Source: an uncultured Candidatus Saccharibacteria bacterium
GTDB taxonomy: Bacteria; Patescibacteriota; Minisyncoccia; UBA6257; WO2-44-18
DNA: 64,000 nt
Direction of reading: 5' to 3'
NCBI GenBank assembly: GCA_964503795.1
Contig: CAZDBT010000001.1
Coordinates: 4,518-68,517, forward strand
The position numbers and the translations under genes were made by a program. Below, one piece after another: positions 1-32,572 of the stretch (position 1 is the stretch's first letter; every line of letters begins with the position of its first letter). Under the pieces are notes generated by a model that was given only the letters and a program-made list of their open reading frames with translations, was not told the DNA's origin and ran no database searches.

Positions 1-383
1 CGACCGGCCCAACAATCGCGTCTCCAACCAAGTAATAAATCTGGTAGTTAAGATCGGGGCGAATGGCCAGGAGAGCAGGCGGAGAAGTCTGGCTCGCTTG
101 TCTTTCTGAAAAACCGAACTGGCATAATAAAACTGCAAACTCGGCACGGAATCAAATTCGTGGATGCAATTAGTTCTCAAGAACTTCGTCAGCATTAGAA
201 GCCGAGAATTTTGAACGGACCAATTCACATACTCAACATTCTTAGAAATAAAATAATCTCCCCGTAAGGCGTCAACGGAGCTACTGAAAACAACTACCCG
301 ATATTTGCTGGCAAGATATTCAATGTACTTTCCGCGCAAAATGTCCGATATAAATATAGGATTCTTTACGAATAAAAAGACGG
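1..383 (-). CDS. Hypothetical protein, 5' part only (3' end beyond window start). Not in the supplied ORF track because it is at the window edge.
   Basis: Manual reverse-complement translation from ATG at 383-381 gives MKTVFLFVKNPIFISDILRGKYIEYLASKYRVVVFSSS... with no stop before position 1. It sits directly upstream of the polysaccharide locus. No family recognised. Confidence 0.35.
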
Positions 384-389
384 TCTTCA

Positions 390-1547
390 TTAGCGGAAAA
401 GGTCAATAACTTTCTGGTTAAGTTTTTCCAGAATTACCCTCTGCTCCGCGATGGAGGCCGGAAGGGCAGTTTTGAATTTTTTGTCGGCAAGGCAGTCGGT
501 TATCCTTTTGAAGATGGCCTCTTCGGTGTCTACTGCCCGATCAACAAATCGGATAGTGTAATCCGGAACACCAGTATCCTGAACAAAATGTTTGATCTTG
601 TCCTGATCGCCAAGAGGAATGAAGGGGGTGCCGGCGCCGTAAGCAAAGATACAGCCGTGCAGTCTCATAGACATCATCAGATCTAGTTTTCGGTAAATAT
701 TAGTGAAGAAAGGAACGTGGGGGTGCAAAAGTTCTCCCGGCGGGGCGTACAAGAACGGCAACTCCTGGTGGAGACTGTAAATACTGCCGGCCGGGAAGGG
801 CGCGGCAAAATCCGCATAAGCTTCAAAGTCCACGATAGAAAGATGCGGCAGATAAAGTATCTGGGCATTTAATTCTTTGACGCACCTTAACAAGGCCGAT
901 TGCAAAGCTTTACGGAAATGCTTTTCATTTTCTGCTCCCGGCTCGGGATAACGATAATGCGGGCGATCACCGGCCAGGTTGAAAGCGATAAGCGGGCCGG
1001 ATGTGCGTTTCATCGGCAGATCAATATCCCGATCATGCAAAAACATTCCGGTATCCGGAGTAACCTCGATCTTGCTCGGATCCAGTCCGAAATCCTTCAC
1101 CAAGTCGCTCTTAACACCGGCGCCGCGAACGGTAAATATCGCAGCCTGCCTTTGTAGTTGGGCGATGTGCGGAGCAGTATAAGCCGGGAACTCATTGCCG
1201 CCATAGCTGAACTTATTATTTCCCAAACTGTAAACTACTATCGGTTTTTTTATCCTGGCAAGATTTTCCGGAGAAATATTAAATCCCCATCCGGAAACGC
1301 TTTTATCTTCCGGGCGGTGGAAGATCAGGCCGCCCCCACCGATCATCACTAAGTCCGCCTCCTCATTCATCTGATCAACTAATTTGTCGTGGAAAAAAGT
1401 CCGCTGACCATCGACCGGATAGAACTTGAAATATAAACCCGCCGACTCGGCCTGTTTATTCAACAGCCGGTGCAAATGATAGGTCAATGCCCAATCGCCG
1501 ATATTGCGATTCCAGCCGGCAACCTGCCAAACATTAATAATTTTCAT
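390..1547 (-). CDS. Polysaccharide pyruvyl transferase family protein (CsaB/WcaK-like)
   Basis: 385 aa. The N-terminus MKIINVWQVAGWNRNIGDWAL matches the N-GD motif at the start of pyruvyl transferases. It lies in the glycan locus. Assignment is from memory of the family, not a search. Confidence 0.45.
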   Translation of the reverse strand: MKIINVWQVAGWNRNIGDWALTYHLHRLLNKQAESAGLYFKFYPVDGQRTFFHDKLVDQMNEEADLVMIGGGGLIFHRPEDKSVSGWGFNISPENLARIKKPIVVYSLGNNKFSYGGNEFPAYTAPHIAQLQRQAAIFTVRGAGVKSDLVKDFGLDPSKIEVTPDTGMFLHDRDIDLPMKRTSGPLIAFNLAGDRPHYRYPEPGAENEKHFRKALQSALLRCVKELNAQILYLPHLSIVDFEAYADFAAPFPAGSIYSLHQELPFLYAPPGELLHPHVPFFTNIYRKLDLMMSMRLHGCIFAYGAGTPFIPLGDQDKIKHFVQDTGVPDYTIRFVDRAVDTEEAIFKRITDCLADKKFKTALPASIAEQRVILEKLNQKVIDLFR

Positions 1548-1558
1548 TTGATTAATAA

Positions 1559-2295: not shown

Positions 2296-3309
2296 TTATT
2301 GTAAAGACGTGATCTGATTTTTCAGCAAGGAACTTTTGATCGCCAGGATCGTCTGCAGTACCTTCTTCCCTTCCGACAAAGGACCAGCAAGCGCGCTATT
2401 CATACCCTGGATCATCAAGCGAAATTCCCGAAGCTCGTTCAAAAAAGTCTCGTTGCGTTCAAACCCCTCGGGCTCCAAATTGATCATCGGCTTCTTGGAG
2501 CTGTCCAGCGGAATGAACTCCAGTTTTTGCCCGAAGTAATCCCAGCAGATCCGCCCCTTGGTGGTGACGATCTCCAGGCTCCGCTTCGGCGGACTCTTGA
2601 GGTAATCAAGATCCAGCGAACCGACGAGGCCTGACTTGAACTTCATCAGAACCTTCGCCACATCTTCCACCTGGATCTGCAGGCCGCCCAGCGATCCACC
2701 GATCGCCATCACGTTTGCGGGCTGGCCGAAAAGCCAATGCAGGTAATCCACTTCGTGACTCTGCGTAAGCACCACTCCGCCTCCCAGATCTTTCCTGGAG
2801 GCGTAGCTGTCGCGGTAGTCTTCCCAGGGATGCCAGCCGGTAACTCTTTCCGCCATCTCGGCATGAAAAGAGATCGCCTCCCCGAACCTCTCACTGCACT
2901 TGGAGAGCCTCTCCCTGATTATCCATATGAATGGATGGAATCGGAGATTGTAAGCCACGTAAGCGATCCGTCCCTGTCGGGTAACTTCCTGCTCCAATTC
3001 ATCCACGCCTTCCATACTGTCGGAAAGCGGCTTTTCGATGAAGAGGTGGCAGCCGGCCCGAGCGGCCTCCAAAGCCACAGGAATATGCAACGAGGTCGGA
3101 TTGGCGACTAGCGCGACATCGGGCTTCTCGGCCAAAGCCTCCTTGAGATCGGTAAAGATCTTGGGCTGATGTTCGGCGATGAACTTCTCAACAAATTCCG
3201 AAGATCCCTTACCCGTCCGAAAGACGATCAGGTCTTTTTCACCCAGCGTGAGCAGGTTGCGATAGTGTCTCTGCCCGATGGAACCCAATCCGCAGATCAG
3301 AAACTTCAT
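2296..3309 (-). CDS. Gfo/Idh/MocA family NAD(P)-dependent oxidoreductase
   Basis: 337 aa. N-terminus MKFLICGLGSIGQRHYRNL is a Rossmann GxGxxG motif with the Gfo/Idh/MocA signature. GGAGGA SD lies 6 nt upstream of the ATG. Confidence 0.7.
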   Translation of the reverse strand: MKFLICGLGSIGQRHYRNLLTLGEKDLIVFRTGKGSSEFVEKFIAEHQPKIFTDLKEALAEKPDVALVANPTSLHIPVALEAARAGCHLFIEKPLSDSMEGVDELEQEVTRQGRIAYVAYNLRFHPFIWIIRERLSKCSERFGEAISFHAEMAERVTGWHPWEDYRDSYASRKDLGGGVVLTQSHEVDYLHWLFGQPANVMAIGGSLGGLQIQVEDVAKVLMKFKSGLVGSLDLDYLKSPPKRSLEIVTTKGRICWDYFGQKLEFIPLDSSKKPMINLEPEGFERNETFLNELREFRLMIQGMNSALAGPLSEGKKVLQTILAIKSSLLKNQITSLQ

Positions 3310-3347
3310 CTTTTGTCCTCCGAATTTGACTATCAGGAACTGCCAGT

Positions 3348-3376
3348 ACTTTAGAATAATTTTTGAAGATTGTCAA
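3348..3376 (-). promoter_or_regulatory. Sigma70-like promoter for the minus-strand sugar-modification operon
   Basis: Minus-strand reading gives TTGACA, a 17-nt spacer, then TAAAGT, about 35 nt upstream of the ATG at 3309. It overlaps a TTGACtttttGtCAA inverted repeat. Confidence 0.35.
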
Positions 3377-3380
3377 AAAG

Positions 3381-3417
3381 TCAAAAAAATAAAAACACCC
3401 CGTAGAACGGGGCGTTA
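3381..3417 (-). terminator. Rho-independent terminator after the cupin gene
   Basis: Minus-strand CGCCCCG-ttcta-CGGGGTG stem followed by TTTTTATTTTTTT. Confidence 0.55.
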
Positions 3418-3422
3418 AGAAG

Positions 3423-4169
3423 CTAGTCAGTCGGCCGAATCTTGGCTTCGGCGAACGGCTTGGCGATGATGCCAAGCATGATGTGATCGTTGAGGTAATA
3501 GTCCCAGTAAAGGTGGGTGCGAAGCTCGTTGCCATCGTTGGCCACTCCGTGCAAACAGGACTGGTTGAAGGTGTAAACCCAGCCAGCCTCCATCGTATAC
3601 GGCTTCTCGTCCATTAGGAACTTAACTCCGGGGTTGGTGAAGATCGGGAGATGGAACCGCAGCTTCCAGTTGTGTTCCCGTCCCGGGATAGCGATGATCT
3701 TCTCACGGTGCTTGCCAAGCGTACCACCGCCGGTGATGGACTGCATCCGAACGTTCTGCAGTTCGGAATCTCCGAAATAACGCCGGAAGAACTCCGGGAT
3801 GTGGACCAGTCGGCTGTTAAACTTCCGCTCCACCGCGCTCCAGTGGTGATCATCCTTGAAATACAACACGTCGTCCTTGGAGTTGTAGAGACTATGTTGC
3901 ATCAGACTGTTCGGCTTCGGCTTCCAGGAAGGGTCCTCGCGAGAAACGAATTTGTAGGTCGGGTGATCGCCGTCAACCATCTGGCCGGGATCGCTGGACA
4001 GAATACCCCGCACCTCGGCCTGGATCTTGGCGAACAGCTCCGGATCACACCGGAACAAGCGAAGGATAGAAATTTCTCCATGAATCAGCTTCGGAATCAT
4101 AGCATTGGCTTCCGGCGAATTCCGGCACAAGTCATCACTAAGTGGGGTAAATGGCTGTTCGGGCGTCAT
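3423..4169 (-). CDS. Cupin-fold protein, aspartyl/asparaginyl beta-hydroxylase-like family
   Basis: Start chosen at MTPEQPF (ATG 4169, AAAGGAGA SD). The C-terminal half has His/Asp spacing (HLPIFTNPG..., CLHGVANDGN...THLYWDYY) reminiscent of PF05118. Assignment is tentative. Confidence 0.4.
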   Translation of the reverse strand: MTPEQPFTPLSDDLCRNSPEANAMIPKLIHGEISILRLFRCDPELFAKIQAEVRGILSSDPGQMVDGDHPTYKFVSREDPSWKPKPNSLMQHSLYNSKDDVLYFKDDHHWSAVERKFNSRLVHIPEFFRRYFGDSELQNVRMQSITGGGTLGKHREKIIAIPGREHNWKLRFHLPIFTNPGVKFLMDEKPYTMEAGWVYTFNQSCLHGVANDGNELRTHLYWDYYLNDHIMLGIIAKPFAEAKIRPTD

Positions 4170-4265
4170 TTGAGTCTCCTTTGAAAGTCCTGCCCGTAAA
4201 TTAACGAAAAATAACCCAAAAGTCAACATAGAAAAAACCCGAGCGCGAGCTCGGGATTAATTTGT

Positions 4266-5108
4266 TTACATCGACCGGTAAATGTCCCGGATGAATTGAA
4301 TGTTCCTTTTGGCGTTGGCGACGACCAGATCCTGCTCGCCGCGGGCTGCCTGAAGGATCAAGGGGTTCCGGTAATTGATCGCCTTCAGCGCGGCGAACAC
4401 CGCAGGGAAATTGGCAGCTCCGGTTCCCAGCGGAACCGAGGAACCTCCCAATTTCCTATCCTTGACGTGGACGCCAACGATCAGATCTTTCAGCAGCAAG
4501 ATCTCTTTAGGCACATCAAATCCCATAGAGGCGGCATTGCCGACATCATAGTACACCTTCACCCGAGGATGCCGGAAATTTTCTATCAACTCCTTCAACT
4601 CTACCGCCGGCAGAGACGACTCAAAGGCAATGTCTACTCCGGCCGCATTAGCCTGAACCAAAAAAGGCGTCAAGTTGTTGATCAGTTGCGTCTTTTCATT
4701 ATCGCCGACGACCTCCGATCTTTCCAAGATCGGGATCAGGATCGTCTTGATCCCGATCCGCCGGCAGTTCTTAATAAGCAACGCCAGCACCACCTGCGCC
4801 AGCGCCAGCTTATCTCCAACGGAACGATGCAGGGTGTAATCCATGAAAAAATCTACGCACACCGAACGGATGGCGACCGAATTTTTTTCCGCCAACAGTT
4901 TCATTTCTTCCAACTCTAGGCCGCCGAGGATCGGATTGTCGGGGTAGTCTTCCGTGTGGAAGATCGGCTCGATCAACTGCAGTCCGATCTGGTGAGCCAG
5001 CGAAAATTCCGCGCGCCAGTTGTTCTTAGGGAAAAATTGCAGTCGGCCATCCGGAGAAGGCGTGAGTCTGCCCTGGATAATGCCGATGGGCGGATGATCA
5101 TTTACCAT
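4266..5108 (-). CDS. Sugar phosphate isomerase/epimerase (xylose isomerase-like TIM barrel)
   Basis: Start at MVNDHPPIGIIQGRL (ATG 5108, GGAGGGAGGA SD). The IGIIQGRL-type N-terminus and overall layout fit the AP-endonuclease-2/xylose-isomerase-like TIM barrel family. Confidence 0.55.
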   Translation of the reverse strand: MVNDHPPIGIIQGRLTPSPDGRLQFFPKNNWRAEFSLAHQIGLQLIEPIFHTEDYPDNPILGGLELEEMKLLAEKNSVAIRSVCVDFFMDYTLHRSVGDKLALAQVVLALLIKNCRRIGIKTILIPILERSEVVGDNEKTQLINNLTPFLVQANAAGVDIAFESSLPAVELKELIENFRHPRVKVYYDVGNAASMGFDVPKEILLLKDLIVGVHVKDRKLGGSSVPLGTGAANFPAVFAALKAINYRNPLILQAARGEQDLVVANAKRNIQFIRDIYRSM

Positions 5109-5863
5109 GCTGTCCTCCCTCCGTCCACGTGCAAGCACGCGCCGGTTACGAACGCCGAAGCGTCCGAAGCCAGGAATAACATCGGTCCGTTAAATTCGCC
5201 TGGCTGCGCCATCCGGCCCAGCATGTTCAGAGCGCCGTTCTTCTTGGCAAACTCTTCGGAATGATTGTTGTTCATCCCGCCGGGCGCCAAAGCGTTGACG
5301 CGAACGTTGTATTCGCCCAAGCGGGCCGCCCAAAATCTCATCATCCCGAGTACTCCGGCCTTGGCTGTTCCGTAGGCAATGTCCTTGAACTGGCCCGGCT
5401 GGTATAGAGAATTGTTCGGACCGATCACTCCCAAGTCGGAAGAAATGAAGATGATGGAACCGAACTTCTGATTCATCATCACCGGCGCCACCGCCTGGGT
5501 GACGAACATCTGGCCGCTCAAGTTCACATCGATCTCTCTGCGCCAGAGCTCGGCCGAAAAATCTTCATAAGCCTCCCACTGACGATGGACGCCCTCTTTG
5601 GCCACTGCCGGATTCAGAGCCGCATTGTTGATCAACGCATCAATCCGGTCGTAGGAATCAGTCACCTCTTCAACGGCTTTTCTGATTGCTGCGGGATTGG
5701 TTATATCCGTTATTACAGTATTGCTACCGTGGAGAGAAATAGCGTCCAAAACAACCGGTTTGCCGCCAGCCTGTTTGACTGCGGCAACATACTGTCGGCC
5801 CAAAAATCCATTCCCACCTGTGATCAGGACCACCTTGCCCTTCAACGAAAACAAGTCGCTCAT
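5102..5863 (-). CDS. Short-chain dehydrogenase/reductase (SDR) family oxidoreductase
   Basis: Start at MSDLFSLKGKVVLITGGNGFLGRQY (ATG 5863, AAAGGAGG SD). TGxxxGxG is the SDR cofactor motif. Confidence 0.7.
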   Translation of the reverse strand: MSDLFSLKGKVVLITGGNGFLGRQYVAAVKQAGGKPVVLDAISLHGSNTVITDITNPAAIRKAVEEVTDSYDRIDALINNAALNPAVAKEGVHRQWEAYEDFSAELWRREIDVNLSGQMFVTQAVAPVMMNQKFGSIIFISSDLGVIGPNNSLYQPGQFKDIAYGTAKAGVLGMMRFWAARLGEYNVRVNALAPGGMNNNHSEEFAKKNGALNMLGRMAQPGEFNGPMLFLASDASAFVTGACLHVDGGRTAW

Positions 5864-5964
5864 AAAGCCTCCTTTAAAAGTCCTGCCCATAAATTACCTG
5901 GAAAATACGTAAATGTCAATAAAAAATCGCCCCGCAATGAGGGGCGATCTAGTTTCATTCTTGG

Positions 5965-19927: not shown

Positions 19928-19970
19928 ACAAAAAAGATTGTAAACTTTTTGACGAAAATGTCAAAAAATA

Positions 19971-20756: not shown

Positions 20757-20760
20757 TAAA

Positions 20761-22008: not shown

Positions 22009-22687
22009 TTTTTAATACGAAATAAGTATAGCGGCCGAACCACTGATTTGCCGGCAATAACCTCCAAAAAGCTTTCCGGCGATTCAGAAAACGGTATTTG
22101 AACTCCGGCTTGGCATAACCCAGTTCCAGCAATCTGAAATTGTTCAAAAAAGCTTTTTTAAATGTCGCTTTAGTGAAAAAGGTGATGTGATTATCGCTCT
22201 CCAACCAATGATACAAATTTCCACGGAATAAAAATAGCAACCGATTCAAAATATGGAAGGGGTTGGGCATGGAAACAATAAAGATCCCTCCCGGCTTGAG
22301 AACCCGGCTCACTTCTCTGATGAAATAATAGGGGTTTTCCAGATGCTCCACGGTCTGCAGAGAAACCACCGCATCAAAAGAATGATCGGGCCAGGGAATT
22401 GGCTGCAGACAAACATCTCCGGTCTTGAAATCAAATTTTTTGGCCTCCGGCTGCCGGTAATCGTCAATGTCCAAGCCGCTTATATTAGCGTAACCGGCCT
22501 GGGATAGCTGTAACAAAAAACCTCCGCTCGCGGAAGCGCAATCCAAGATCGCGCTCGCGGTATTGGGCGTATATCGCCTCACTAGACCCAAAGCCCGGCC
22601 ACTGCGGATATCCCAGCTGGCATGCTGCTGAAGCCCGGAGAGTTCCGGGCGTGAATTTTTTATTTCTTCCGGAGTTAAATATTTCAT
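21998..22687 (-). CDS. Class I SAM-dependent methyltransferase
   Basis: 229 aa. ILDCASASGGF is motif I and LKPGGIFIVSMPN is motif III. Confidence 0.6.
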   Translation of the reverse strand: MKYLTPEEIKNSRPELSGLQQHASWDIRSGRALGLVRRYTPNTASAILDCASASGGFLLQLSQAGYANISGLDIDDYRQPEAKKFDFKTGDVCLQPIPWPDHSFDAVVSLQTVEHLENPYYFIREVSRVLKPGGIFIVSMPNPFHILNRLLFLFRGNLYHWLESDNHITFFTKATFKKAFLNNFRLLELGYAKPEFKYRFLNRRKAFWRLLPANQWFGRYTYFVLKNDR

Positions 22688-25554: not shown

Positions 25555-25555
25555 T

Positions 25556-26623
25556 TTAGGTAGAGAGGATGGCCTTATTCAGCTTATCCATTAAATCATT
25601 TAATCCGTGCTTGGCAATGATCAGCTCGCGCAAAGCTGCGCCGATCTCCCGCCGTTCCTCTTCCGATAAATTAACGAGTTCCGATATCCGGGCCGCCAAA
25701 GCGCCGGCATCGTTCTCCAGAAACATCAGCCGGTCCTGTAATTTCGGCGGCAGGATCTCCCTGAAAGCCAGATTGCTCACCAGCACCGGCAAACCGCATG
25801 CCATTGCTTCCAGCGTGCTCTTATCAAAACTGCCGGTAACGGTGAGATTCACGAATAGATCGTGCTGATTATAGATGGACGGTGTTTGAAAGTTAGGAAC
25901 GGGGGGGTGGAATCTGATCTTGGAGGCTATAACCGGATCTCCGGCCAGTTTTTTTATCTGCTCAAAGTAGGCCGCTTCCGAGTTTTTGCCGGGCGTCGGG
26001 CCGCCGACCACCGATAACTCTATGGCCGACCGGGAGGCGGCCATTTGAAAAGCTCGGATCAGCACATCTAGGTTCTTGACCGGAGAAATTCTCCCCAAAA
26101 AAAGAATTTTTAACGGCGGCTGGCCAGCTTTAAAACGATGCTCGATCGGCCGGAACAGGTCGGTGTCTATGCCCTGTTGAAGCACTAATAATTTTTTGCT
26201 TGGAAAAGGAAAAGCCCGTCGGGTAGAAGTTACAAGACGATCGGCCAACATAGCCGCCAGACGAATTTTCCAGTTAGAAATATAGTGAGCATACCACAAA
26301 ATGATTTTCTTTCCGGTTAACCTCCAAAATATCCCACCAAGCAGCACATATTCGGGATTCATATGAACGAATACCCGGTCGTACTCTTTCCGTAATTTCC
26401 AGATCAGACCTAAAAAACGAAAAATGAACCGGATCCGTGTCCGGCCCGATTCCTTGCCCAAAGAATAAACTGTAACATTGGCCGGCAATTCGGTTTTGCC
26501 CTGATACAGGCAAACAACCGTCACTTTTTCGCAGCGCTTGGCTTGGCCTTCTATCCAGCGATGATAAACTCCCAACACATCATCGTTTTTGTCCGCTTTT
26601 TGGGTGATGAATAATAACTTCAT
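25556..26623 (-). CDS. GT4 glycosyltransferase
   Basis: 355 aa. The C-terminal FDKSTLEAMACGLPVLVSN is a GT4 motif. Confidence 0.65.
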   Translation of the reverse strand: MKLLFITQKADKNDDVLGVYHRWIEGQAKRCEKVTVVCLYQGKTELPANVTVYSLGKESGRTRIRFIFRFLGLIWKLRKEYDRVFVHMNPEYVLLGGIFWRLTGKKIILWYAHYISNWKIRLAAMLADRLVTSTRRAFPFPSKKLLVLQQGIDTDLFRPIEHRFKAGQPPLKILFLGRISPVKNLDVLIRAFQMAASRSAIELSVVGGPTPGKNSEAAYFEQIKKLAGDPVIASKIRFHPPVPNFQTPSIYNQHDLFVNLTVTGSFDKSTLEAMACGLPVLVSNLAFREILPPKLQDRLMFLENDAGALAARISELVNLSEEERREIGAALRELIIAKHGLNDLMDKLNKAILST

Positions 26624-26626
26624 AAG

Positions 26627-27685
26627 TTAGAAAGTTAAACTTTTCTTAAATTGATCAAAGTATTGCTCCTTGGTTGGCCAATTTTTAAAAAATTCATTTT
26701 GTTGTTCAACCAACTTTTTTCTCTTTTCCGGGCTCCGGATCAATTCTTCAATGATCGCGACCGCCTTTTCTTTATCGCCGACCGGGAAAATAGCTCCCAA
26801 CGCCACGCCAACATCGGTCATCACCACTGGCACCACGGCAGCAGCAGCCTCCACTGCAACCATCCCATAACCCTCATAATTTGAGGTTAGTAAAAATAAA
26901 TCAGCAGCTTTATAGTATCGGGCTTTCAAATCCTGATTATCCAAGGCCTCATCTAGCCACTCAGCGCCAACGTCGTTTCTACCATACCCAAAATGAAACC
27001 ATTTAACCCGATTCCCTCGTTTCTTTAGCTCGCCGATTATATCATTCGCTAAAGCCATGTTTTTCTCCGGGCCTTTCCGCGCCACAGTTAATATCAAAAA
27101 ATCTTCGCGGGCAATCTTGAGCGCATCGCGAGATACAGGAGAGGCCAATCTGAAAGTCTCCTTGTCCACAAAGATCGGTAGCACGGCAATCTTACTTTCT
27201 AATTTGGCATCGAGAACAACTAAGGATTTTTTGATGCGCTCCGAAACAACTCGAATCCGATCCGCTTTCCGGACAATTTTTTTTGCGATTACAACTCGCA
27301 ATCGGTTTTTCAAAGATGCCCGGCCAAAATATGAGCTCATAAAATCAGTGTGAATTTGGACCTGGAAAGGGATCCGGAGGGTTTTTTTCAGCCGATAGGC
27401 CACCCAGCCGGTTTCAAATGGATCCTGCGATGAGACCACCCAGCCGCCGCCATCCCCCATTACTTTCCGGCCCAATCGAATCGCGCGCGCGAAATATCCC
27501 ATCCGGAACCGATTGTTGGTCGGGAGAATCGAGACATTACCGATCTCTTCTTTTATTTTTCCCGGTCGCGTATAAACCACGACGCAGAGCTCTTCAAATA
27601 ATTTCCCGTATTCTAAAATTCTAGCGCGCGCCGGGCTCGCTTCGTTGAATATCTGGGAGTCGGTTGATAATAATAGAACTTTCAT
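26627..27685 (-). CDS. GT4 glycosyltransferase
   Basis: 352 aa. YEGYGMVAVEAAAAVVPVVMTDVG is a GT4 motif. Confidence 0.6.
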   Translation of the reverse strand: MKVLLLSTDSQIFNEASPARARILEYGKLFEELCVVVYTRPGKIKEEIGNVSILPTNNRFRMGYFARAIRLGRKVMGDGGGWVVSSQDPFETGWVAYRLKKTLRIPFQVQIHTDFMSSYFGRASLKNRLRVVIAKKIVRKADRIRVVSERIKKSLVVLDAKLESKIAVLPIFVDKETFRLASPVSRDALKIAREDFLILTVARKGPEKNMALANDIIGELKKRGNRVKWFHFGYGRNDVGAEWLDEALDNQDLKARYYKAADLFLLTSNYEGYGMVAVEAAAAVVPVVMTDVGVALGAIFPVGDKEKAVAIIEELIRSPEKRKKLVEQQNEFFKNWPTKEQYFDQFKKSLTF

Positions 27686-27692
27686 TATTTCT

Positions 27693-28331
27693 TTATTTCT
27701 TTAATACAAAAAACCGGTGGTAATGATCCAGTACCGGGCTGATCTCTTTTTCTATACGGAAAAATTTACGGATAGTTCCTCTAACCTTGCTTAGGGGAGT
27801 TTTAAAAAGATCTATCTCCCAATAATGCTGGCCGGAAACCTTGATGCCGCCGAAGGGCAATGGAATCCGGAAATGAATGTCCAAAAACAACCGGCGAAAA
27901 ATTGTCCGGACGAACGGAAACTTCAAAACCATTTCAAAGTAGGTGGACTTATAGGGAACGGAAATGAGAACCCGGCCGCCGGAGACTCGTTTCAATTCCG
28001 CCAGCGCCACCTCCACGTCCGCGAACGGCAGATGCTCTAAAACCTCAAAAGCCGTAACCAGATCAAAACTGTTATCCGGAAAAGGCAATTTGCGGATATC
28101 GGCTACCACATCGGGGCCCAGGTCTTTATCAAAATCACAAGTGGTGACCTGATAGCCCAACTTCTTCAGATAGTCCGAAAAAAATCCATTGCCCTTGCCG
28201 ATCTCTAAAATCTTGGCCCCCGCCTCAACCGCTTCCTGCGAAAGATCTATCTGATAGAAATAGGAAATAAAACGATCCAGGGTATCGTATTTTTTCCGGA
28301 AATAATGGTCTTTTTTAACCTGTATGTTCAT
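27693..28331 (-). CDS. Class I SAM-dependent methyltransferase
   Basis: 212 aa. ILEIGKGNGFF is motif I and FDLVTAFEVLEHL is the post-motif II region. Confidence 0.6.
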   Translation of the reverse strand: MNIQVKKDHYFRKKYDTLDRFISYFYQIDLSQEAVEAGAKILEIGKGNGFFSDYLKKLGYQVTTCDFDKDLGPDVVADIRKLPFPDNSFDLVTAFEVLEHLPFADVEVALAELKRVSGGRVLISVPYKSTYFEMVLKFPFVRTIFRRLFLDIHFRIPLPFGGIKVSGQHYWEIDLFKTPLSKVRGTIRKFFRIEKEISPVLDHYHRFFVLKK

Positions 28332-29400
28332 TGATTAGTTTTACTAGATTATCCACGGTGCGTTCGATGGTGAAATTCTTTGCTTTGTCTCGCGCGGCCA
28401 ACGCAACATGATTACTAAAATTGCTATCTATCTGCATCCTATTTATGGCTGCGAGGATCTGCTCCTTGTTGTTCGGCTCTATCAAGATGCCCTCTTTGCC
28501 GCTTTCTATCAACTCAGGAATACTTCCTATATTGGTAGCAATTACCGGCAAGCCGGCGTTCATTGCCTCAGCGACCGCAAAAGAAAAACTTTCGAAAGCG
28601 GTATTCAAAATGAACAATCCCGCATTGGGCAGGTATTCTTTTAGCATCACTTCACGACTAACATCTCCGGGCAATTCAACGCGATCCTCAAGTTTGAGTT
28701 CCTTGATGATGTTAACTAGCCTGCCTCGATCTGGTCCGTCACCGATAATGACTAGCCGGGAACCGACAAGCTCGGGTTCAGTCATCAAGTGAATTAGAAA
28801 ATCAAAGCCCTTCCAGGGCACAAGACGCCCCACCGATATGAACATCTTTGGATCCCTAGCTGTCATAACCACCGGATCAAATTTGATCCCATTATAAATC
28901 GTTTTCACCCTGTCAGGATTTTTTATCCAACCGCCAACGAGTTTCCGAAAATAGTTGCTTGGCGTGATCACCAGATCCGCGCGACCGACAACGAACCGTT
29001 GGATCGCCCGCAATAACCCGACTCGCCAACCGTATCTTTTATGCTGGAAATCATCTATCGTATCGCCCACGCCGAAACGTTGCGCCGATTGTTCCCAAGC
29101 ATAATCTCCCGCGACGCGAATAAAAAATCTCTTGCCCCGTAGTCGCGCGGCGATCAACGCCGGCAAACCAACGCTCACCGGATCTTGCGCGTAAACGACG
29201 TCGCAATTTTTAGCCTTCCAAAAACAGTCCCACAGATACAAACAATGCCGGATCAACTTCGGCTTCTTCCGATATTCCGTAAAGGCCAGATGATCAACCA
29301 CAAAGCCGCGGCTTGGAAGCTCTTTTTCCATAAGAACCGTGTAAGTGGCCGGACCGCCAATATCCGGAGGATATATTCCGGTAGCAATTAGGATTCGCAT
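28315..29400 (-). CDS. GT4 glycosyltransferase
   Basis: 361 aa. ESFSFAVAEAMNAGLPVIATNIGSIPE is a GT4 motif. Confidence 0.7.
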   Translation of the reverse strand: MRILIATGIYPPDIGGPATYTVLMEKELPSRGFVVDHLAFTEYRKKPKLIRHCLYLWDCFWKAKNCDVVYAQDPVSVGLPALIAARLRGKRFFIRVAGDYAWEQSAQRFGVGDTIDDFQHKRYGWRVGLLRAIQRFVVGRADLVITPSNYFRKLVGGWIKNPDRVKTIYNGIKFDPVVMTARDPKMFISVGRLVPWKGFDFLIHLMTEPELVGSRLVIIGDGPDRGRLVNIIKELKLEDRVELPGDVSREVMLKEYLPNAGLFILNTAFESFSFAVAEAMNAGLPVIATNIGSIPELIESGKEGILIEPNNKEQILAAINRMQIDSNFSNHVALAARDKAKNFTIERTVDNLVKLINEHTG

Positions 29401-30539
29401 AATTTTTGGAAAATATTCCTCATTTTTGCCGCAACAATATCCCAGGTATATTTTTCGGCGATCAATTTTTTGCCATTCGCGATCAGCTTCTCCCGTAAGT
29501 TCCGGTCGCCGGACAAACGGTCTAGCTTTTCGGCTAGATCCCCGGGGTCATCCACTTTAGCGAATAACCCGGTCTCGCCGTCTTTGAGAAAATCCGGTAT
29601 ACCCCCAACATTAGTGCCGATGATCGGCAGACCGATCGCCATCGCTTCCAGAAAAGAATTACCCAGACCCTCCGAACGCGACGCCCGCGCAAAGACAGTA
29701 GACCGTAGCAAGTAGGAGGGTATTTGGTCTGGCTCTATATGACCAAGAAACTGCACCTGATCTCCAATGCCCAGATCTTTAGTCAACAATTCAAGTTTTT
29801 GACGTTCCGGTCCGTCGCCCAGGATCAGTAGCTTGTAACTAGCAGTATGTAACAGTGGTAATGACCTGATCAAAATATCAACGCCATTTTTGTACACTAA
29901 TCGTGAGGTGGTGATAATTATATGAGACTTATTGGTCCTATAAGACTTATCGGTCCTATAATTGGCCAAATCTACCCCATTAGGAATAACTTCGATCGGG
30001 CAACGGGCTCCGTGCCGGCGCGCAAAATCCGCCAAAAAATTGCTGATGACCTGAATATAGTCCGCTTTTTTGAATATTTTTTTCCAGAGCGGATAGAAAA
30101 TGCCGACTTTTCCTAAAATATGCTCCTCGGAGTCCCCCTCTTGCAAAGTAAGCAGAAGAGGCACGCTCGGGTGCCGCAGTTTAAATATCAAGGCGGCTAT
30201 TCCCGCGTAAGAAGCCATCACCGCCCAGATCGCCGAAAAAGGCCGCCCGCGATGGATCTTTTCCGCGACCCGGACTGCCTGAAAAATATAAAGGATCTTT
30301 CCGAAAAGTCCTCCGTAGTAACTGCGCGGGGAGTTTTTCCCCCTGCCGATGCGCAAGATCGAACAATTATCAAAAGATTCCGCCGTAGGCCAGCTTCGGT
30401 CAAATTTCTTAGTAAAAACCACAAAGTCACTGGCCGGAGCGCGCGAGATGATCTCTTTAAGGGCGATCTCCGCCCCTCCGATGAACGGCGGATAAGCCAA
30501 ACTAAAAACCCCGATCGCTTGTTTTGACATCCGTCTCAT
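29388..30539 (-). CDS. GT4 glycosyltransferase carrying an in-frame 18-bp tandem duplication
   Basis: 383 aa. EGLGNSFLEAMAIGLPIIGTNVGGIPD is a GT4 motif. Codons at 29925-29960 encode the tandem YRTDKS-YRTNKS, derived from the duplicated motif AGACTTAT(T/C)GGTCCTATA. Confidence 0.7.
   Translation of the reverse strand: MRRMSKQAIGVFSLAYPPFIGGAEIALKEIISRAPASDFVVFTKKFDRSWPTAESFDNCSILRIGRGKNSPRSYYGGLFGKILYIFQAVRVAEKIHRGRPFSAIWAVMASYAGIAALIFKLRHPSVPLLLTLQEGDSEEHILGKVGIFYPLWKKIFKKADYIQVISNFLADFARRHGARCPIEVIPNGVDLANYRTDKSYRTNKSHIIITTSRLVYKNGVDILIRSLPLLHTASYKLLILGDGPERQKLELLTKDLGIGDQVQFLGHIEPDQIPSYLLRSTVFARASRSEGLGNSFLEAMAIGLPIIGTNVGGIPDFLKDGETGLFAKVDDPGDLAEKLDRLSGDRNLREKLIANGKKLIAEKYTWDIVAAKMRNIFQKLCES
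29925..29960. repeat. Tandem 18-bp direct duplication of the GGTCCTATAAGAC motif family (copy 1 of 3 loci)
   Basis: agacttattggtcctata immediately followed by agacttatcggtcctata, 17 of 18 identical. Confidence 0.8.
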
Positions 30540-30571
30540 AGTATCGTATAAATTGTAAAACTTAAAGACTT

Positions 30572-31681
30572 ATGAAGAAGCAAAAAATACTCTACTTGGT
30601 CACTAAAGATGATGTGGGCGGCGCGCAGAAATACGTCGCCGACCTCTCCGGCGGCCTAGATCCCGAGCAATTTGACATCAAGGTGATCACCGGCGGAAAA
30701 GCCGGAGCGCGGTTTTTATCTAATTCCTTTTGGCCTTTCCTGCTGTTCATCAATGACTGGCTGGCGTTGGGAGGATTATTCCTGATCTTCCGGAGAGAGC
30801 GGCCGGCGATAGTCCATCTTAACAGCTCTAAGGCAGGAGTGATCGGCGCTATAGCGGCGAAGCTGGCCGGAGTGCCTAAGGTGGTCTTCACGGCCCATGG
30901 CTGGGTTTTTAATCCGGACAATTACCTAAGCCTCTCCCGACGCTGGACCTATATCGCCTTTCATAAATTCGCCGGCTATTTTCAAAATAAGATCATCAAC
31001 GTTTCCGAATATGACCGCCAGCTGGCGCTAAAATATCACATTGCCGATCCCGCCAAACTGGTCACCATTCACAACGGCCTGGACTGGCAGAATCTGAAAT
31101 TTCTGGATAAAAAAACCGCCCGCAAAGCGCTGGCGACTCTGGCGCGAACCAGATCCGATAATGAAATTTGGATAGGCTCGATCGGCCGACTGGTCGCCGA
31201 AAAAAGTCATGAGGATTTTATTGAGGCCGCCGCCCTGGTAGAAAATCCACAAACCAAGTTTTTTGTTATCGGCGACGGATCTTTAAAAACAAAATTGGAA
31301 CGCCGGATCAAAGCAGTCGGATTAGAGAACCGGTTCTTCCTGATCCAAAACATTTCACCAGCCGCTCCTTATCTGAAGGCCTTTGATCTGTTCCTGCTCT
31401 CCTCGATCAAGGAAGGACTGCCGTACACTTTATTGGAAGCAATGACCGCCCAGCTGCCGATCATCGTCACGCGCGTCGGAGGGATGCCGGAAATAATTTC
31501 CGACCGGGGATTGATAATGCCGCCCCGCGAACCGGAGGAGTTGGCTCGCGCCATCAATCATCTGATCTCCAAACCGGAAGAGGCCAAAAAAATAGCGGCG
31601 GCGGGTAACGAATTTCTCAAAAAGAAACTGGGGATCGAGCAAATGTTGGCCGCCACCAGAGAAATTTATCTTAACGACTAA
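30572..31681 (+). CDS. GT4 glycosyltransferase
   Basis: 369 aa. KEGLPYTLLEAMTAQLPIIVTRVGGMPE is a GT4 motif. Transcribed divergently from the upstream GT4. Confidence 0.7.
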   Translation: MKKQKILYLVTKDDVGGAQKYVADLSGGLDPEQFDIKVITGGKAGARFLSNSFWPFLLFINDWLALGGLFLIFRRERPAIVHLNSSKAGVIGAIAAKLAGVPKVVFTAHGWVFNPDNYLSLSRRWTYIAFHKFAGYFQNKIINVSEYDRQLALKYHIADPAKLVTIHNGLDWQNLKFLDKKTARKALATLARTRSDNEIWIGSIGRLVAEKSHEDFIEAAALVENPQTKFFVIGDGSLKTKLERRIKAVGLENRFFLIQNISPAAPYLKAFDLFLLSSIKEGLPYTLLEAMTAQLPIIVTRVGGMPEIISDRGLIMPPREPEELARAINHLISKPEEAKKIAAAGNEFLKKKLGIEQMLAATREIYLND

Positions 31682-32471
31682 GAGCGTCCACTTCGTTCTG
31701 GACCTGCTGTTGCTGGAGCCCGGTAATTCCCGATAACTTCAAGAACCGGTTGAAATATTCCAACGCCTGCTCTTTATTCTGGACGGACTTATAATAAAAC
31801 CCGAGCTGAAGAAGCAAATTGGGATCGGCAGGTAAAACTTTCAGACCAGCCAGCAGAACATCATCTATCTGGTCGGATTTTGCTTTGTAGAAATCACGGT
31901 AGAATTCCGCCAAACCAAGGTAAGTATAATCGGAATTAGGGTCAAGCTTTAAAGCTCCTAGAAAATTTTGCTCCGCCTTTTGATTATCCCCCAAGTAAGA
32001 GGCGTACAAATTTCCGAGGTTGTAACAGTTGAGGGCGTTGCTGGGGTTGAGTAATTTGGCATACTCCCAAGCATCCCGGACACCGAAAAAATTATCAAAA
32101 TTCTTCTTCACTAATCCGATGTCCATCCAATTGGTTTCATCGGTCGGATCGGCCTCAACCAATTTGATGATGTCAGCCAGTTGATTCCGTTTCTGCTCCA
32201 CAAACTCGGCGGGGTATTTGGCTAAAATTTGCGGATCGCCTAAAAATTTCAAAGCCTGCCCACTATATTTTTTAGTGGTGGCGGGTTTGATAGAACCTTG
32301 GCTGACTGGCGGCGGCGCGAGCAAAGATCCGGTAGATGGCGTAGCGGAAGCAAGGTCGTCCGGATTACTTCCGGCAACTGGAGAACTTCCACGATGAACC
32401 ACCGAATAGACCGCAGTCGCGGTTACGGCCAATAATCCAAAAACGCCGACGGAAAGTAAGATTTTCTTCAT
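31671..32471 (-). CDS. Secreted tetratricopeptide-repeat (TPR) protein
   Basis: 266 aa. An N-terminal hydrophobic signal/anchor (LLSVGVFGLLAVTATAVYSVV) is followed by TPR-like repeats (NALNCYNLGNLYASYLGDNQKAEQNFLGALKLDPN...). Confidence 0.6.
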   Translation of the reverse strand: MKKILLSVGVFGLLAVTATAVYSVVHRGSSPVAGSNPDDLASATPSTGSLLAPPPVSQGSIKPATTKKYSGQALKFLGDPQILAKYPAEFVEQKRNQLADIIKLVEADPTDETNWMDIGLVKKNFDNFFGVRDAWEYAKLLNPSNALNCYNLGNLYASYLGDNQKAEQNFLGALKLDPNSDYTYLGLAEFYRDFYKAKSDQIDDVLLAGLKVLPADPNLLLQLGFYYKSVQNKEQALEYFNRFLKLSGITGLQQQQVQNEVDALSR

Positions 32472-32572
32472 AGATTTAAAAACATAGAAATCTTAACCCA
32501 ATTCAAAACCCCCCGCAAGGGGGGTTTTGAATTCCTAACAGATCTCAAGATGTCGGTTGCCCGACAAACCCG

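Follow-up and report, generated by a model that had tools for sequence, protein, structure and literature searches.

What does a small-genome uncultured bacterium, a relative of the Patescibacteria/Paceibacteria, make with sugar-building genes placed back-to-back over more than 32 kb, and do these genes serve one product? The window analysed here (the whole 64-kb stretch of DNA) begins with 31 consecutive genes (positions 1-32471), all glycan-related according to Pfam and NCBIfam except the glyA-folD pair. An initial annotation, made from the letters alone, had described a contiguous surface-glycan locus of about 32 kb. The contiguity and very large size of this locus, in a Patescibacteria-type genome, were borne out; its start at base 1 was not, since a second TagF-like gene crosses the window start. 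The family calls were reproduced throughout in the Pfam and NCBIfam searches (one, a cupin, is reassigned below), and the sugar-nucleotide, methylation, pyruvylation, GT2/YfhO, TagF-like and GT4 modules named there were all found. Reassignment of the NeuB-, NeuA- and RfbH-like genes to unrelated families, set beforehand as the outcome counting against the annotation, occurred for none of them.

The locus is ordinary in kind, with one unusual module, the sialic-acid-like one, which departs from the standard type. Nearly all genes lie on one strand, as first noted, the exceptions among the listed locus genes being 13025-14035 and 30572-31681, and most genes overlap or are separated by less than 15 nt. 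From the gene content we infer that the product would be a decorated acidic polymer on the cell surface. Scanning of the window ORFs revealed no priming phosphoglycosyl transferase, LCP ligase or oligosaccharyltransferase and no NDP-sugar pyrophosphorylase for CDP or GDP sugars; a GalU-like gene (37297-38172) was the sole gene of the pyrophosphorylase kind seen.

Conserved frame and the glyA-folD insert

Comparison of synteny among relatives separated a conserved frame from two window-specific cassettes. At least five further contigs show the same arrangement of genes, at a protein identity of 40-70 %. The first part of the frame comprises GT4s, a Wzx-like flippase, a TagF-like gene, a methyltransferase (MT), [glyA-folD], MT/GT4 and an epimerase, and the second part runs NeuB-SDR-TIM-oxygenase-Gfo-CMP-transferase-pyruvyltransferase-TagF-like. 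The window is collinear with contig L082 except for additional HAD phosphatase and methyltransferase genes in L082 and for the window cassettes Gmd-Fcl-GT2-CMeT and YfhO-GT2-SDR-SDR-dehydrase, which break collinearity. In L083 the order is flippase-TagF-MT-GT4 ... NeuB ... CMPtr-PyrT-TagF. In and beside the first part of the frame lie the following genes:

13025-14035, + strand: UDP-hexose/HexNAc(A) 4-epimerase-like SDR (GalE 187 bits, TviC 185 bits)
14026-14985, - strand: extended SDR (PF01370, 163 bits)
14972-16000, - strand: GT4 (PF00534; 49-63 % identity in L001, L003, L082 and L083)
19971-20819, - strand: FolD (PF00763, PF02882)
20761-22008, - strand: GlyA, serine hydroxymethyltransferase (PF00464, 532 bits)
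21998-22687, - strand: SAM methyltransferase (PF08241)
22797-24140, - strand: TagF-like GT-B transferase (PF04464, 44 bits, C-terminal part only)
24154-25554, - strand: divergent multi-TM flippase of Wzx/MOP type, 466 aa (at least seven TM segments)
25556-26623 and 26627-27685, - strand: two GT4 (PF00534/PF13692; a single fused gene in L001 and L082)
27693-28331, - strand: SAM methyltransferase with a partial MftM-like match (PF08241; NF041255, 56 bits)
28315-29400 and 29388-30539, - strand: two GT4 (PF00534, 117 and 142 bits)
30572-31681, + strand: GT4 on the opposite strand (PF00534, 119 bits)

Within the frame, conservation is highest for the 4-epimerase-like SDR (66-71 % identity in L001, L003 and L082). 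The count of six GT4 genes was confirmed, five at 25556-31681 plus 14972-16000, and both SAM methyltransferases carry PF08241. The flippase has no Pfam match of its own, but homologs 66-72 % identical to it bear PF01943, so that the original call stands through its homologs and not by direct Pfam support.

The glyA-folD pair had been suspected to mark the junction of two loci. GlyA overlaps the upstream methyltransferase by 11 nt, the arrangement TagF-[MT]-glyA is common to L001-L003 and L085, and the embedding is conserved in this clade, among the closest relatives. L083 shares the frame but lacks the pair, which makes glyA-folD an insert within a conserved operon frame instead of a junction. 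The association is limited to one clade (2 of 46 NeuB loci, 3 of 80 glyA loci); two relatives have a deacetylase/formyltransferase pair near glyA-folD in the same operon. The pair would be a housekeeping unit fixed in the operon in one clade and may supply one-carbon units.

Two window-specific cassettes

Cassette A, inserted in the conserved frame, consists of gmd, an fcl-like gene, a GT2 and a 3-C-methyltransferase gene:

16000-17286, - strand: NDP-4-keto-6-deoxyhexose 3-C-methyltransferase with a Zn domain (Methyltransf_13, Methyltransf_23, Methyltransf_14)
17267-17953, - strand: GT2, AglJ/dolichyl-phosphate-hexose-synthase-like (TIGR04182 111 bits, NF041391 95 bits)
17959-18957, - strand: Fcl-like GDP-4-keto-6-deoxymannose epimerase/reductase (GDPFucSynFcl 206 bits, under the 500 cut-off)
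18932-19927, - strand: GDP-mannose 4,6-dehydratase, Gmd (TIGR01472 531 bits; equivalog cut-off 415)
19937-19964, - strand: near-consensus sigma-70-like promoter, TTGACA-16-TACAAT, in the FolD/Gmd gap

The methyltransferase gave full-length matches to MtmC (4RV9, 184 bits) and TcaB9, and the cassette is predicted to yield a GDP-derived 3-C-methyl-6-deoxyhexose. The promoter, a consensus match only, agrees at 11 of 12 consensus positions and is the best of the locus; the cassette that carries it starts directly after folD.

Cassette B, likewise inserted in the frame, encodes YfhO, a GT2, a 4,6-dehydratase, a reductase and a 3-dehydrase:

6998-8272, - strand: NDP-4-keto-6-deoxyhexose 3-dehydrase of E1/ColD type (DegT/RfbH-like)
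8185-9162, - strand: extended SDR, probable 4-ketoreductase/epimerase (PF01370)
9169-10149, - strand: NDP-hexose 4,6-dehydratase of CDP-glucose type (SDK-AYG Asp-Lys motif)
10142-10837, - strand: GT2, probable polyprenyl-phosphate sugar synthase (PF00535; 9 nt to YfhO)
10847-13003, - strand: YfhO-family GT-C membrane glycosyltransferase (PF09586, 42 bits; cut-off 28.5), at least eight TM segments

The 3-dehydrase probably starts near 8185 (the gene call in L081 has 395 aa) and scored 378 with RfbH (cut-off 423), 279 bits with E1 (3BCX) and 188 bits with ColD. Its diagnostic His (His220 equivalent) is kept, three of the four Fe-S cysteines are lost (E1 C251/C253/C261 replaced by S/L/I), and the scan of the window ORFs revealed no E3 gene; taken together, these features predict ColD-like chemistry. 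The family of the earlier RfbH/ColD-like assignment holds. The 8185-9162 SDR lacks an Asp-Glu or Asp-Lys dehydratase pair. The top NCBIfam model for 9169-10149 was CDP_4_6_dhtase (197 bits, under the 278 cut-off). Cassette B would provide a 3,6-dideoxyhexose.

The SAF-less NeuB block and the TagF-like genes

The second part of the frame occupies the start of the window:

1-392, - strand: second TagF-like gene (Glyphos_transf), first 130 aa, running off the window start
390-1547, - strand: polysaccharide pyruvyl transferase (PS_pyruv_trans, PF04230, 73 bits)
1559-2248, - strand: CMP-ulosonate synthetase-like cytidylyltransferase (CTP_transf_3, PF02348, 80 bits)
2296-3309, - strand: Gfo/Idh/MocA sugar dehydrogenase, PtmF-like by family (PF01408/PF22725)
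3423-4229, - strand: AspH-like Fe(II)/2-oxoglutarate oxygenase (Asp_Arg_Hydrox, PF05118)
4266-5138, - strand: xylose-isomerase-like TIM barrel (AP_endonuc_2, PF01261, 78 bits)
5102-5890, - strand: classical SDR ketoreductase, FabG/KduD-like, PtmA-like by family (PF13561, 142 bits)
5965-6924, - strand: SAF-less NeuB-family PEP-condensing ulosonate synthase (PF03102, 245.7 bits)

In the synthase the catalytic, metal and PEP residues are kept and the sugar-site residues altered (F112W, E134S, N184S); it has a 25-aa insertion, lacks the SAF domain and scored below the equivalog cut-offs (NeuB_NnaB 249 against 400, PseI 204 against 340). Scores under the cut-off were also obtained for the cytidylyltransferase (PseF 133 against 205.7; KdsB models cover its N-terminal half) and the pyruvyl transferase (CsaB 38.8 against 213). 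The TIM-barrel gene matched sugar-phosphate 3-epimerases/isomerases weakly (L-ribulose-5-P 3-epimerase models, 60-64 bits), with a match to UlaE (3CQH). The gene at 3423-4229 had been taken for a cupin; PF05118 and an AlphaFold model (pLDDT 94.4) whose best Foldseek matches are 2OG hydroxylases identify it as an AspH-like oxygenase, for which only 37 homologs were found. Its source gene call (P0121, 248 aa) starts about 20 codons inside the ORF.

The locus contains no NeuC and none of the PseBCGH/LegBCGH genes, LegG and PseG included, and it likewise lacks an N-acetyltransferase and any aminotransferase bearing the catalytic Lys; together with the scores of the SAF-less synthase, this leaves the nonulosonic acid of the initial annotation not established. 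In a survey of 46 related SAF-less NeuB loci with flanks of at least 5 kb, genes were counted within 6 kb: KdsC-like HAD in 78 %, CTP_transf_3 in 63 %, SDR in 50 %, Gfo in 33 %, TIM in 28 %, and GmhA-like SIS and TagF-like genes in 24 % each. The HADs belong to the KdsC subfamily (117.5 bits, above the 106.95 cut-off, and 99.1, just under it). In L083 a SIS domain is fused to NeuB (gmhA score 201.5, cut-off 209.45), and two NeuB fusions, P0009 and P0023, share 60-66 % identity with the synthase analysed here. In L084 the SAF-less NeuB adjoins a Capsule_synth (KpsC/S-family) gene, and a canonical NeuC+NeuB-SAF pair lies elsewhere in that contig.

The KdsC-like and GmhA-like partners suggest that the block makes a CMP-ulosonic acid by a Kdo/Kdn-style phosphosugar route, and they speak against the routes through ManNAc or a 2,4-diamino-6-deoxyhexose by which Neu5Ac, Pse and Leg are made. 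For the window this route is extrapolated from homologous loci, because the whole 64 kb contains no KdsC-like phosphatase or SIS isomerase; a formyltransferase and a deacetylase are likewise absent. The SDR, Gfo and CTP_transf_3 trio resembles PtmA/PtmF/LegF of legionaminic-acid loci (PMC4481668), which keeps a Leg-like nonulosonic acid in play as an alternative product.

CDP-glycerol is the classical substrate of TagF-like enzymes. The TagF-like protein at 22797-24140 scored 25 with TarF (cut-off 550) and weakly matched the BFO_1060 family (39.6 bits), to which the TagB/TagF-like enzymes of T. forsythia, proven Pse/Leg transferases, belong (PMC5420450). We propose it as a candidate CMP-ulosonate transferase. 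The second TagF-like gene is complete on Logan contigs L166/L167 (448 aa, PF04464), with a start identical to the translation of 1-392; the order CMP-transferase, pyruvyltransferase, TagF-like is common to L082 and L083.

Predicted product and competing explanations

The TPR and PG-binding proteins beside the locus were as first described; a hairpin is listed with them:

31671-32471, - strand: membrane-anchored TPR protein (TPR families; N-terminal TM segment)
32509-32524: terminator-like GC-rich palindromic hairpin with a T-run, after the 1252-aa gene
32573-36331, - strand: secreted 1252-aa PG_binding_1 protein (PF01471, 22.8 bits, just under the 23 cut-off)

The 1252-aa protein has a signal-peptide-like N-terminus and a combined S, T, G and A content of 44 %, and is possibly a glycan acceptor or a wall-anchored surface protein. 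The glycosylated S-layer system of the initial annotation comes down to this adjacency. Scanning of the window ORFs turned up neither an oligosaccharyltransferase nor an SLH domain nor any S-layer family, and a role as S-layer glycoprotein is unproven. Sialic-, Pse- or Leg-like protein glycosylation, in which a glycan capped by a C9 acid decorates this S-layer-like protein, is an unlikely explanation of the locus. It would account for the NeuB-family synthase, the CTP_transf_3 gene, the PtmA/PtmF/LegF-like trio and the abutting secreted S/T-rich protein, a similar one of which adjoins the NulO locus of L084; S-layer proteins of T. forsythia are glycosylated by TagB-like NulO transferases (PMC5420450), and glycosylated S-layer synthesis has been suggested for CPR genomes (PMC5220378). 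Against it stand the missing nonulosonate genes and the SAF-less, low-scoring synthase described above, the lack of PglB/AglB/PglL/Wzy_C among the ORFs scanned, the hairpin separating the 1252-aa gene from the locus, and the fact that this protein is not kept beside the locus in L001-L003 or L082.

Chance juxtaposition, in which genome streamlining packed several glycan loci that have nothing to do with one another next to a housekeeping operon and no common product exists, is improbable: the cassette structure, the promoter following folD, the distinct GC3 and gene-by-gene hairpins of the NeuB-Gfo block and the restriction of glyA to one clade fit it, but the gene order is repeated in other contigs and genes overlap or nearly touch across module boundaries. 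Classical teichoic acid synthesis is judged about as improbable. Here CDP-alditol would be the donor from which the TagF-like enzymes make a glycerol- or ribitol-phosphate polymer, which GT2/YfhO would glycosylate, with the NeuB and deoxysugar modules belonging to a separate polysaccharide. The Glyphos_transf matches, the flippase and the GT2+YfhO pair, established LTA/WTA glycosylation machinery of Gram-positives, are in its favour; TagD/TarD, TarI/J, TagO/TagA/TagB and TagGH are, however, absent from the window and from the Pfam-annotated genes of related loci, the TarF score is far below its cut-off, up to five TagF-like paralogues in relatives accompany CTP_transf_3 as the only cytidylyltransferase seen, and the CMPtr-PyrT-TagF order is conserved.

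The reading that we favour, at somewhat better than even probability, is one large operon system, a frame plus two lineage-specific cassettes, for an anionic, methylated and pyruvylated envelope heteropolysaccharide. The six GT4s, together with the two SAM methyltransferases, would build and O-methylate the repeat unit on a lipid carrier, and the divergent Wzx-type flippase would export it. The sugars of both cassettes would be loaded onto polyprenyl phosphate and transferred extracellularly by YfhO, an addition outside the membrane resembling Gram-positive teichoic-acid glycosylation. The seven-gene block (SAF-less NeuB, SDR, TIM-barrel, 2OG oxygenase, Gfo/Idh/MocA, CTP_transf_3 and pyruvyl transferase) would form a CMP-activated 3-deoxy-2-ulosonic acid following Kdo/Kdn logic, from ketose-P to aldose-P, PEP condensation, dephosphorylation and CMP activation, with the two TagF-like GT-B enzymes as its likeliest CMP-dependent transferases or polymerases. 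A phosphate-free wall polymer with Kdn is known from monoderm Streptomyces (PMC11481543), and the polymer made by this bacterium may be teichulosonic-acid-like.

Organisation of the locus and its conserved frame

On the ORF map, genes follow one another on the minus strand almost without interruption between bases 1 and 36331, with neighbours mostly overlapping or less than 15 nt apart, and Pfam and NCBIfam scans reproduced all the families named in the initial annotation. Among them were a pyruvyl transferase, a CTP_transf_3 cytidylyltransferase, Gfo/Idh/MocA and NeuB; a classical SDR, a 'cupin' of the Asp/Arg-hydroxylase type and a TIM barrel resembling xylose isomerase were also confirmed. 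Several extended SDRs, a three-domain Zn C-methyltransferase and a DegT protein similar to RfbH/ColD were likewise found. Gmd scored 530.8 bits on TIGR01472 (equivalog cut-off 415) and was accompanied by an Fcl-like partner. The transferases were a GT2 with YfhO, a second GT2, six GT4 genes, a TagF-like protein and two SAM methyltransferases, and the scans also found FolD, GlyA, a multi-TM protein and a TPR protein. The genes central to the analysis were:

5965-6924, minus strand, NeuB-type synthase without the SAF domain
6998-8272, minus strand, DegT/RfbH-like dehydrase
22797-24140, minus strand, TagF-like protein
32573-36331, minus strand, secreted PG_binding_1 protein of 1252 aa adjoining the locus

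The glycan locus is contiguous as proposed, but base 1 is not its start. Bases 1-392 belong to a second TagF-like gene, of which they cover the N-terminal part, and the window edge therefore truncates the locus. On two Logan contigs carrying an identical pyruvyl transferase this gene is whole (448 aa, PF04464) and is followed by a gene for a multi-TM protein.

For synteny, the window proteins were compared by tblastn with 80 glyA loci and with 80 loci retrieved through the NeuB-like protein, and the Pfam-annotated contexts of related loci were also used; together these revealed a conserved frame. In the related locus L082 the order is GT4-GT4, flippase, TagF-like, GlyA, FolD, methyltransferase, GT4 and epimerase (on the opposite strand), followed by NeuB, HAD, SDR, TIM, methyltransferase, oxygenase, Gfo, CMP-transferase, pyruvyl transferase and TagF-like. 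The HAD gene and the methyltransferase of this second half are not in the window, and the other frame genes are collinear. Relative to L082, cassette A of the window (Gmd, Fcl-like, GT2 and C-methyltransferase) is inserted between FolD and GT4, and cassette B (YfhO, GT2, 4,6-dehydratase, SDR and 3-dehydrase) between the epimerase and NeuB. The 43-nt gap between FolD and Gmd contains the best sigma-70-like match of the locus (11/12), and a GC-rich hairpin lies between the 1252-aa gene and the remaining locus. The separate GT4 genes of the window correspond to giant multi-GT4 fusions in L082 (1-2423, 1466 aa) and in a second relative, L001 (1056-3206, 716 aa).

GlyA had its best matches, at up to 68% identity, in Patescibacteria MAGs labelled Colwell-, Wolfe-, Brenner- or Paceibacterota, or 'Saccharibacteria' in automated assemblies, a kinship in agreement with the small-genome organism assumed earlier. 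The remainder of the window is housekeeping (ClpB, a class-V aminotransferase, FtsK, RecA, MetK and a GalU-like gene). Rfam at the gathering threshold gave three tRNAs only, all far outside the locus, and no element singling out glyA-folD. A phosphoglucomutase-like gene at 44359-45291 encodes domains II-IV only (310 aa); it was rejected as a truncated pseudogene since three related loci (L004, L009 and L012) share the roughly 300-aa form, which makes it a lineage feature. The 254-aa ORF upstream of it (45361-46125) had no Pfam hit. Long overlapping ORFs on both strands were seen at 60886-62675 (GC 0.54); two of those on the minus strand were scanned, and neither matched a Pfam family. Two envelope-related genes, for a CofD/YvcK-family protein (54852-55814) and a PLD-like protein of the cardiolipin-synthase type (53801-54847), adjoin each other.

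Deoxysugar cassettes

The best alignment of the DegT protein was with E1 (3BCX, 279 bits; ColD, 188 bits), and its RfbH score was 378 against a cut-off of 423. Its SFYASHIVT segment aligned with SFYPAHHIT of 3BCX, placing His in the position of the PLP-binding Lys (His220). An aminotransferase of the PseC/LegC type was rejected on this replacement of the Schiff-base Lys, and the protein is therefore regarded as a dehydrase. The [2Fe-2S] ligands of E1 are presumably C193, C251, C253 and C261; the last three aligned with S, L and I, and C193 alone was kept. No E3 (RfbI) or ferredoxin-reductase-like gene was found in the locus by Pfam. The replacement of three of the four cysteines together with the missing E3 gene implies that this putatively Fe-S-less dehydrase would follow ColD-like, reductase-independent chemistry.

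Both 3,6-dideoxyhexose pathways, to CDP-ascarylose/abequose (RfbF/G/H/I) and to GDP-colitose (Gmd, ColD, ColC), have features in common with the window, namely the CDP-type dehydratase, the His dehydrase, the adjacent reductase and gmd. The dehydrase is nearest to E1 but departs from the E1 pathways in its cysteines and its lack of E3. The active-site His, the mostly replaced cluster cysteines and the presence of gmd in the locus are compatible with ColD, although the neighbouring 4,6-dehydratase has the CDP-type Asp-Lys motif. No gene for a Glc-1-P cytidylyltransferase turned up in the window.

The C-methyltransferase comprises PF08421, PF13489 and PF08484 (Zn N-domain, SAM methyltransferase and C-terminal Methyltransf_14) and aligned with MtmC (4RV9) over residues 9-421 at 184 bits, and with TcaB9 over its full length. 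TDP-mycarose-type pathways (TylC3/MtmC/TcaB9) likewise use a Zn 3-C-methyltransferase; here gmd and the Fcl-like reductase join it in one cassette, a combination that presumably resembles GDP-virenose-type synthesis. Cassette A differs from both types by the addition of a polyprenyl-phosphate sugar synthase-like GT2. Each cassette contains one such short GT2, with YfhO in cassette B, which fits extracytoplasmic decoration. As in the CsbB/GtrB and YfhO glycosylation of teichoic acids, the gene of a GT2 immediately precedes that of a GT-C of the YfhO family, which has at least 8 TM segments; unlike CsbB/GtrB, the window GT2s are short (about 230 aa) and have no TM segment, and no GtrA-type flippase was seen.

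The SAF-less NeuB module and its proposed sugar acid

The window synthase contains the NeuB TIM-barrel domain (PF03102, 245.7 bits), and the metal/PEP residues of NmNeuB (E25, K53, K129, H215, E234 and H236) are all identical in the alignment. The 319-aa protein stops after the barrel and gave no PF08666 hit to the SAF/antifreeze-like C-terminal domain, the source of the sugar-site Arg314 in canonical NulO synthases. It also carries the changes F112W, E134S and N184S and a 25-residue insertion, and it scored below the equivalog cut-offs of NeuB_NnaB (249.4 against 399.65) and PseI (203.7 against 340.25). The SAF-less family, of which 6NCS (290 aa) is a solved example, is abundant in Patescibacteria. 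Such NeuBs occur in environmental bacteria, and a large-scale phylogenetic survey gives them no substrate or product of their own (PMC8208679). Full-text literature searches found no paper joining Patescibacteria/CPR with nonulosonic, NeuB or pseudaminic terms, and Parcubacteria with sialic acid gave irrelevant matches only.

Two close homologs, P0009 and P0023 (60-66% identity to the window enzyme), are SIS-domain fusions; in these and in the related locus L083 (6076-7695) the SAF-less NeuB is naturally fused to a GmhA-like sedoheptulose-7-phosphate isomerase domain, which scored 201.5 bits on the gmhA equivalog in L083 (cut-off 209.45). These fusions hint at a heptose phosphate as the aldose substrate. 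Another relative, L084, has a canonical NeuC and NeuB-SAF pair alongside a SAF-less copy; the latter adjoins CTP_transf_3, and a KpsC/S-family Capsule_synth gene lies close, with a methyltransferase and CTP_transf_3 between.

The surroundings of the SAF-less NeuB, up to 6 kb away, were surveyed in 46 loci having 5 kb of flank or more. The neighbours were a KdsC-like HAD phosphatase (78% of the loci), CTP_transf_3 (63%), a FabG-like SDR (50%), Gfo (33%), TIM (28%), and GmhA-like SIS and TagF-like genes (24% each), and no NeuC homolog was found within this distance. Two of the HADs were assigned to the KdsC subfamily, with 117.5 bits in L083 (cut-off 106.95) and 99.1, slightly under it, in L082. 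These neighbours point to a putative Kdo/Kdn logic of isomerase, PEP condensation, phosphatase and CMP activation rather than to Neu5Ac, Pse or Leg synthesis. The same steps (SIS, synthase, KdsC-family HAD and CTP_transf_3) thus appear in the related loci as in the Kdo pathway (KdsD-KdsA-KdsC-KdsB) and in the Kdn-9-P/Neu5Ac-9-P routes of Bacteroides and animals; in contrast to the Kdo pathway, the synthase is a NeuB-family TIM barrel and not KdsA, and the isomerase partner is GmhA-like (heptose) and not KdsD. The SDR, Gfo, TIM and 2OG-oxygenase steps are extra to both. Against the Kdo/Kdn route, the window has no phosphatase or isomerase of its own: tblastn of the 64-kb window found no KdsC-like HAD, GmhA-like SIS, formyltransferase, deacetylase, NeuC or Capsule_synth, and its isomerase-type gene is the UlaE-like TIM barrel only. 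The sole match, a weak one of 37 bits to the NeuC query inside the TagF-like gene, is consistent with the common GT-B fold.

A further caveat on that route is the SDR, Gfo and CMP-transferase trio, which also resembles PtmA/PtmF/LegF of legionaminic-acid loci (PMC4481668). Leg/Pse/Neu clusters (ptmA/ptmF/legF) likewise combine a NeuB-family synthase and a CMP-transferase with a PtmA-like SDR and a PtmF-like Gfo oxidoreductase. Unlike those clusters, the window has no SAF domain, no NeuC/LegG/PseG hydrolysing epimerase and neither LegB/C/H nor PseB/C/H, and its proteins fall under the NeuB, PseI and PseF equivalog cut-offs; the cytidylyltransferase scored 80 bits on CTP_transf_3 and 133 on PseF (cut-off 205.7). 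As to the precursor enzymes of Neu5Ac, Pse and Leg, Pfam gave no Epimerase_2 above the cut-off and no acetyltransferase family in the locus, and its single DegT protein has His where an aminotransferase would have Lys.

The Kdo/Kdn logic can be extended to a specific scheme, which we consider unlikely. The SAF-less NeuB block would make an undescribed CMP-3-deoxy-2-ulosonic acid by a Kdo-like four-step phosphosugar route, perhaps a C10 acid from D-glycero-D-manno-heptose 7-phosphate. The acid would be hydroxylated by the 2OG oxygenase, pyruvylated, and attached or polymerised by TagF-like proteins into a phosphate-free 'teichulosonic-acid-like' wall polymer replacing teichoic acids, with glyA-folD feeding formyl/methyl decoration. 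Ten carbons are proposed because the GmhA::NeuB fusions suggest a heptose 7-phosphate precursor; the chain length of the acid is not readable from sequence. Literature searches for 'deculosonic' or ten-carbon sugar acids gave nothing. In Magnetospirillum, however long the acid here may be, C10 ulosonic acids activated by CMP have been reported (2026 preprint), and acids beyond C9 are therefore not implausible.

The model of the 'cupin' (pLDDT 94.4) has an AspH-like Fe/2OG hydroxylase fold. The protein belongs to a small family (37 sequences) and had no match among PDB sequences; its model resembles generic Fe/2OG hydroxylases, among them proline hydroxylases, AspH and a nucleoside-antibiotic hydroxylase (TM about 0.5). 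A Kdo-hydroxylase-like identity gained no support, with no Kdo hydroxylase among the matches listed in the model structure search.

The NeuB, SDR, TIM, oxygenase and Gfo genes (2296-6924) have a GC of 0.54-0.56 and a GC3 of 0.65-0.72, compared with a GC3 of 0.49-0.61 in all other genes of the locus, the neighbouring CMP-transferase and pyruvyl transferase among them; NeuB, HAD and SDR of L082 show the same. Another origin or another level of expression may lie behind this composition. A strong terminator-like hairpin on the minus strand lies in every gap of this block (5924-5950, 4238-4255, 3394-3416 and 2285-2315), and promoter-like hexamers come after two of them; in other parts of the locus the genes overlap. 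The hairpins may be terminators, RNA-stability elements or repeat elements.

Proposed wall polymer, one-carbon genes and surface protein

The Glyphos_transf matches of the TagF-like genes are partial and weak; in the window PF04464 spans residues 316-445 only, and the TarF score is 25 against a cut-off of 550. No CDP-glycerol or CDP-ribitol genes (TagD/TarIJ) were found in the window or the related loci, and relatives have up to five TagF-like paralogues round a single CTP_transf_3. The window protein also weakly matched the BFO_1060 family, whose members are the T. forsythia Pse/Leg transferases with a TagB-like domain, proven by genetics (PMC5420450). From these four observations we infer that the TagF-like proteins probably transfer CMP-ulosonate.

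By analogy, the closest known product class would be the phosphate-free, Kdn-containing teichulosonic acid of Streptomyces. This Kdn-Gal wall polymer (SCO4873-4882) of a monoderm is ulosonic, anionic and often methylated (PMC11481543; PMC13011467). Streptomyces NeuBs fall in group I only, the home of the SAF-less branches, and that of S. scabiei has no SAF domain (PMC8208679). The likeness is one of description, the Patescibacteria polymer being a prediction from genes, and pyruvylation and 2OG-oxygenase steps would be extras of the window. The multi-TM protein, a candidate Wzx/MOP flippase, gave no Pfam hit; it has at least 7 hydrophobic segments, and its 66-72% identical homologs carry PF01943/PF13440. 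Pfam scans that covered most of the other window ORFs of 100 aa or more found no priming transferase, LCP ligase or oligosaccharyltransferase.

The glyA-folD pair overlaps the upstream methyltransferase gene and has glycan genes on both sides. The same embedding occurs in L001-L003 and L082, with glyA alone in L085, and is missing from L083, which has the same frame, and from most of the 80 glyA loci. A universal glycan partnership was rejected, as only 3/80 glyA loci and 2/46 NeuB loci show it. In more distant relatives glyA-folD is followed by PGM, an aminotransferase and ClpB, whose window counterparts lie at 38.8-45.3 kb. Orthologous Formyl_trans_N (45% identity) and Polysacc_deac_1 genes occur as part of the glycan operon in L001 (15857-19070) and L085 (5985-7681), within 8 kb of glyA; the window has neither. 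Since a formyltransferase/deacetylase pair has been proposed to make N-formyl CMP-NulO in Kuenenia, a role of glyA-folD in one-carbon supply is plausible in the clade; it is unsupported for this window, where a formyltransferase is missing. Most parsimoniously, the two are housekeeping genes that became fixed in the operon. MetK (58667-59821) lies next to tRNA-Val and tRNA-Lys (58449-58595), about 26 kb from the locus, which places SAM supply for the three methyltransferases in the neighbourhood.

The 1252-aa protein has a near-threshold PG_binding_1 domain (22.8 bits, cut-off 23) and no SLH domain, and no CsaB/SLH anchoring was recognised (CsaB score of the pyruvyl transferase, 38.8 against 213). 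No oligosaccharyltransferase (PglB/AglB/PglL-Wzy_C) was found among the window ORFs scanned, YfhO being the sole GT-C. The glycosylated surface layer suggested initially is linked to this protein by adjacency only. The initial interpretation is partly supported: what stands is an envelope-glycan cluster of mosaic make-up, in itself a familiar kind of locus, in which two features appear from their sequences to be non-standard, namely the E1-like dehydrase with its loss of Fe-S ligands and the phosphosugar-type module of the SAF-less NeuB.

Next to nothing is known of envelope chemistry in the candidate phyla radiation, and since these cells live attached to hosts, the surface is central to their biology. 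Between them, this locus and the related ones establish a conserved frame into which variable cassettes are set, and the frame can serve as a guide for comparison. If the acid is a mere standard Kdn or Leg derivative, the locus would be an ordinary, though large, polysaccharide cluster. The analysis singles out a widespread, uncharacterised family of NeuB-type synthases, whose partners imply a new acidic sugar.
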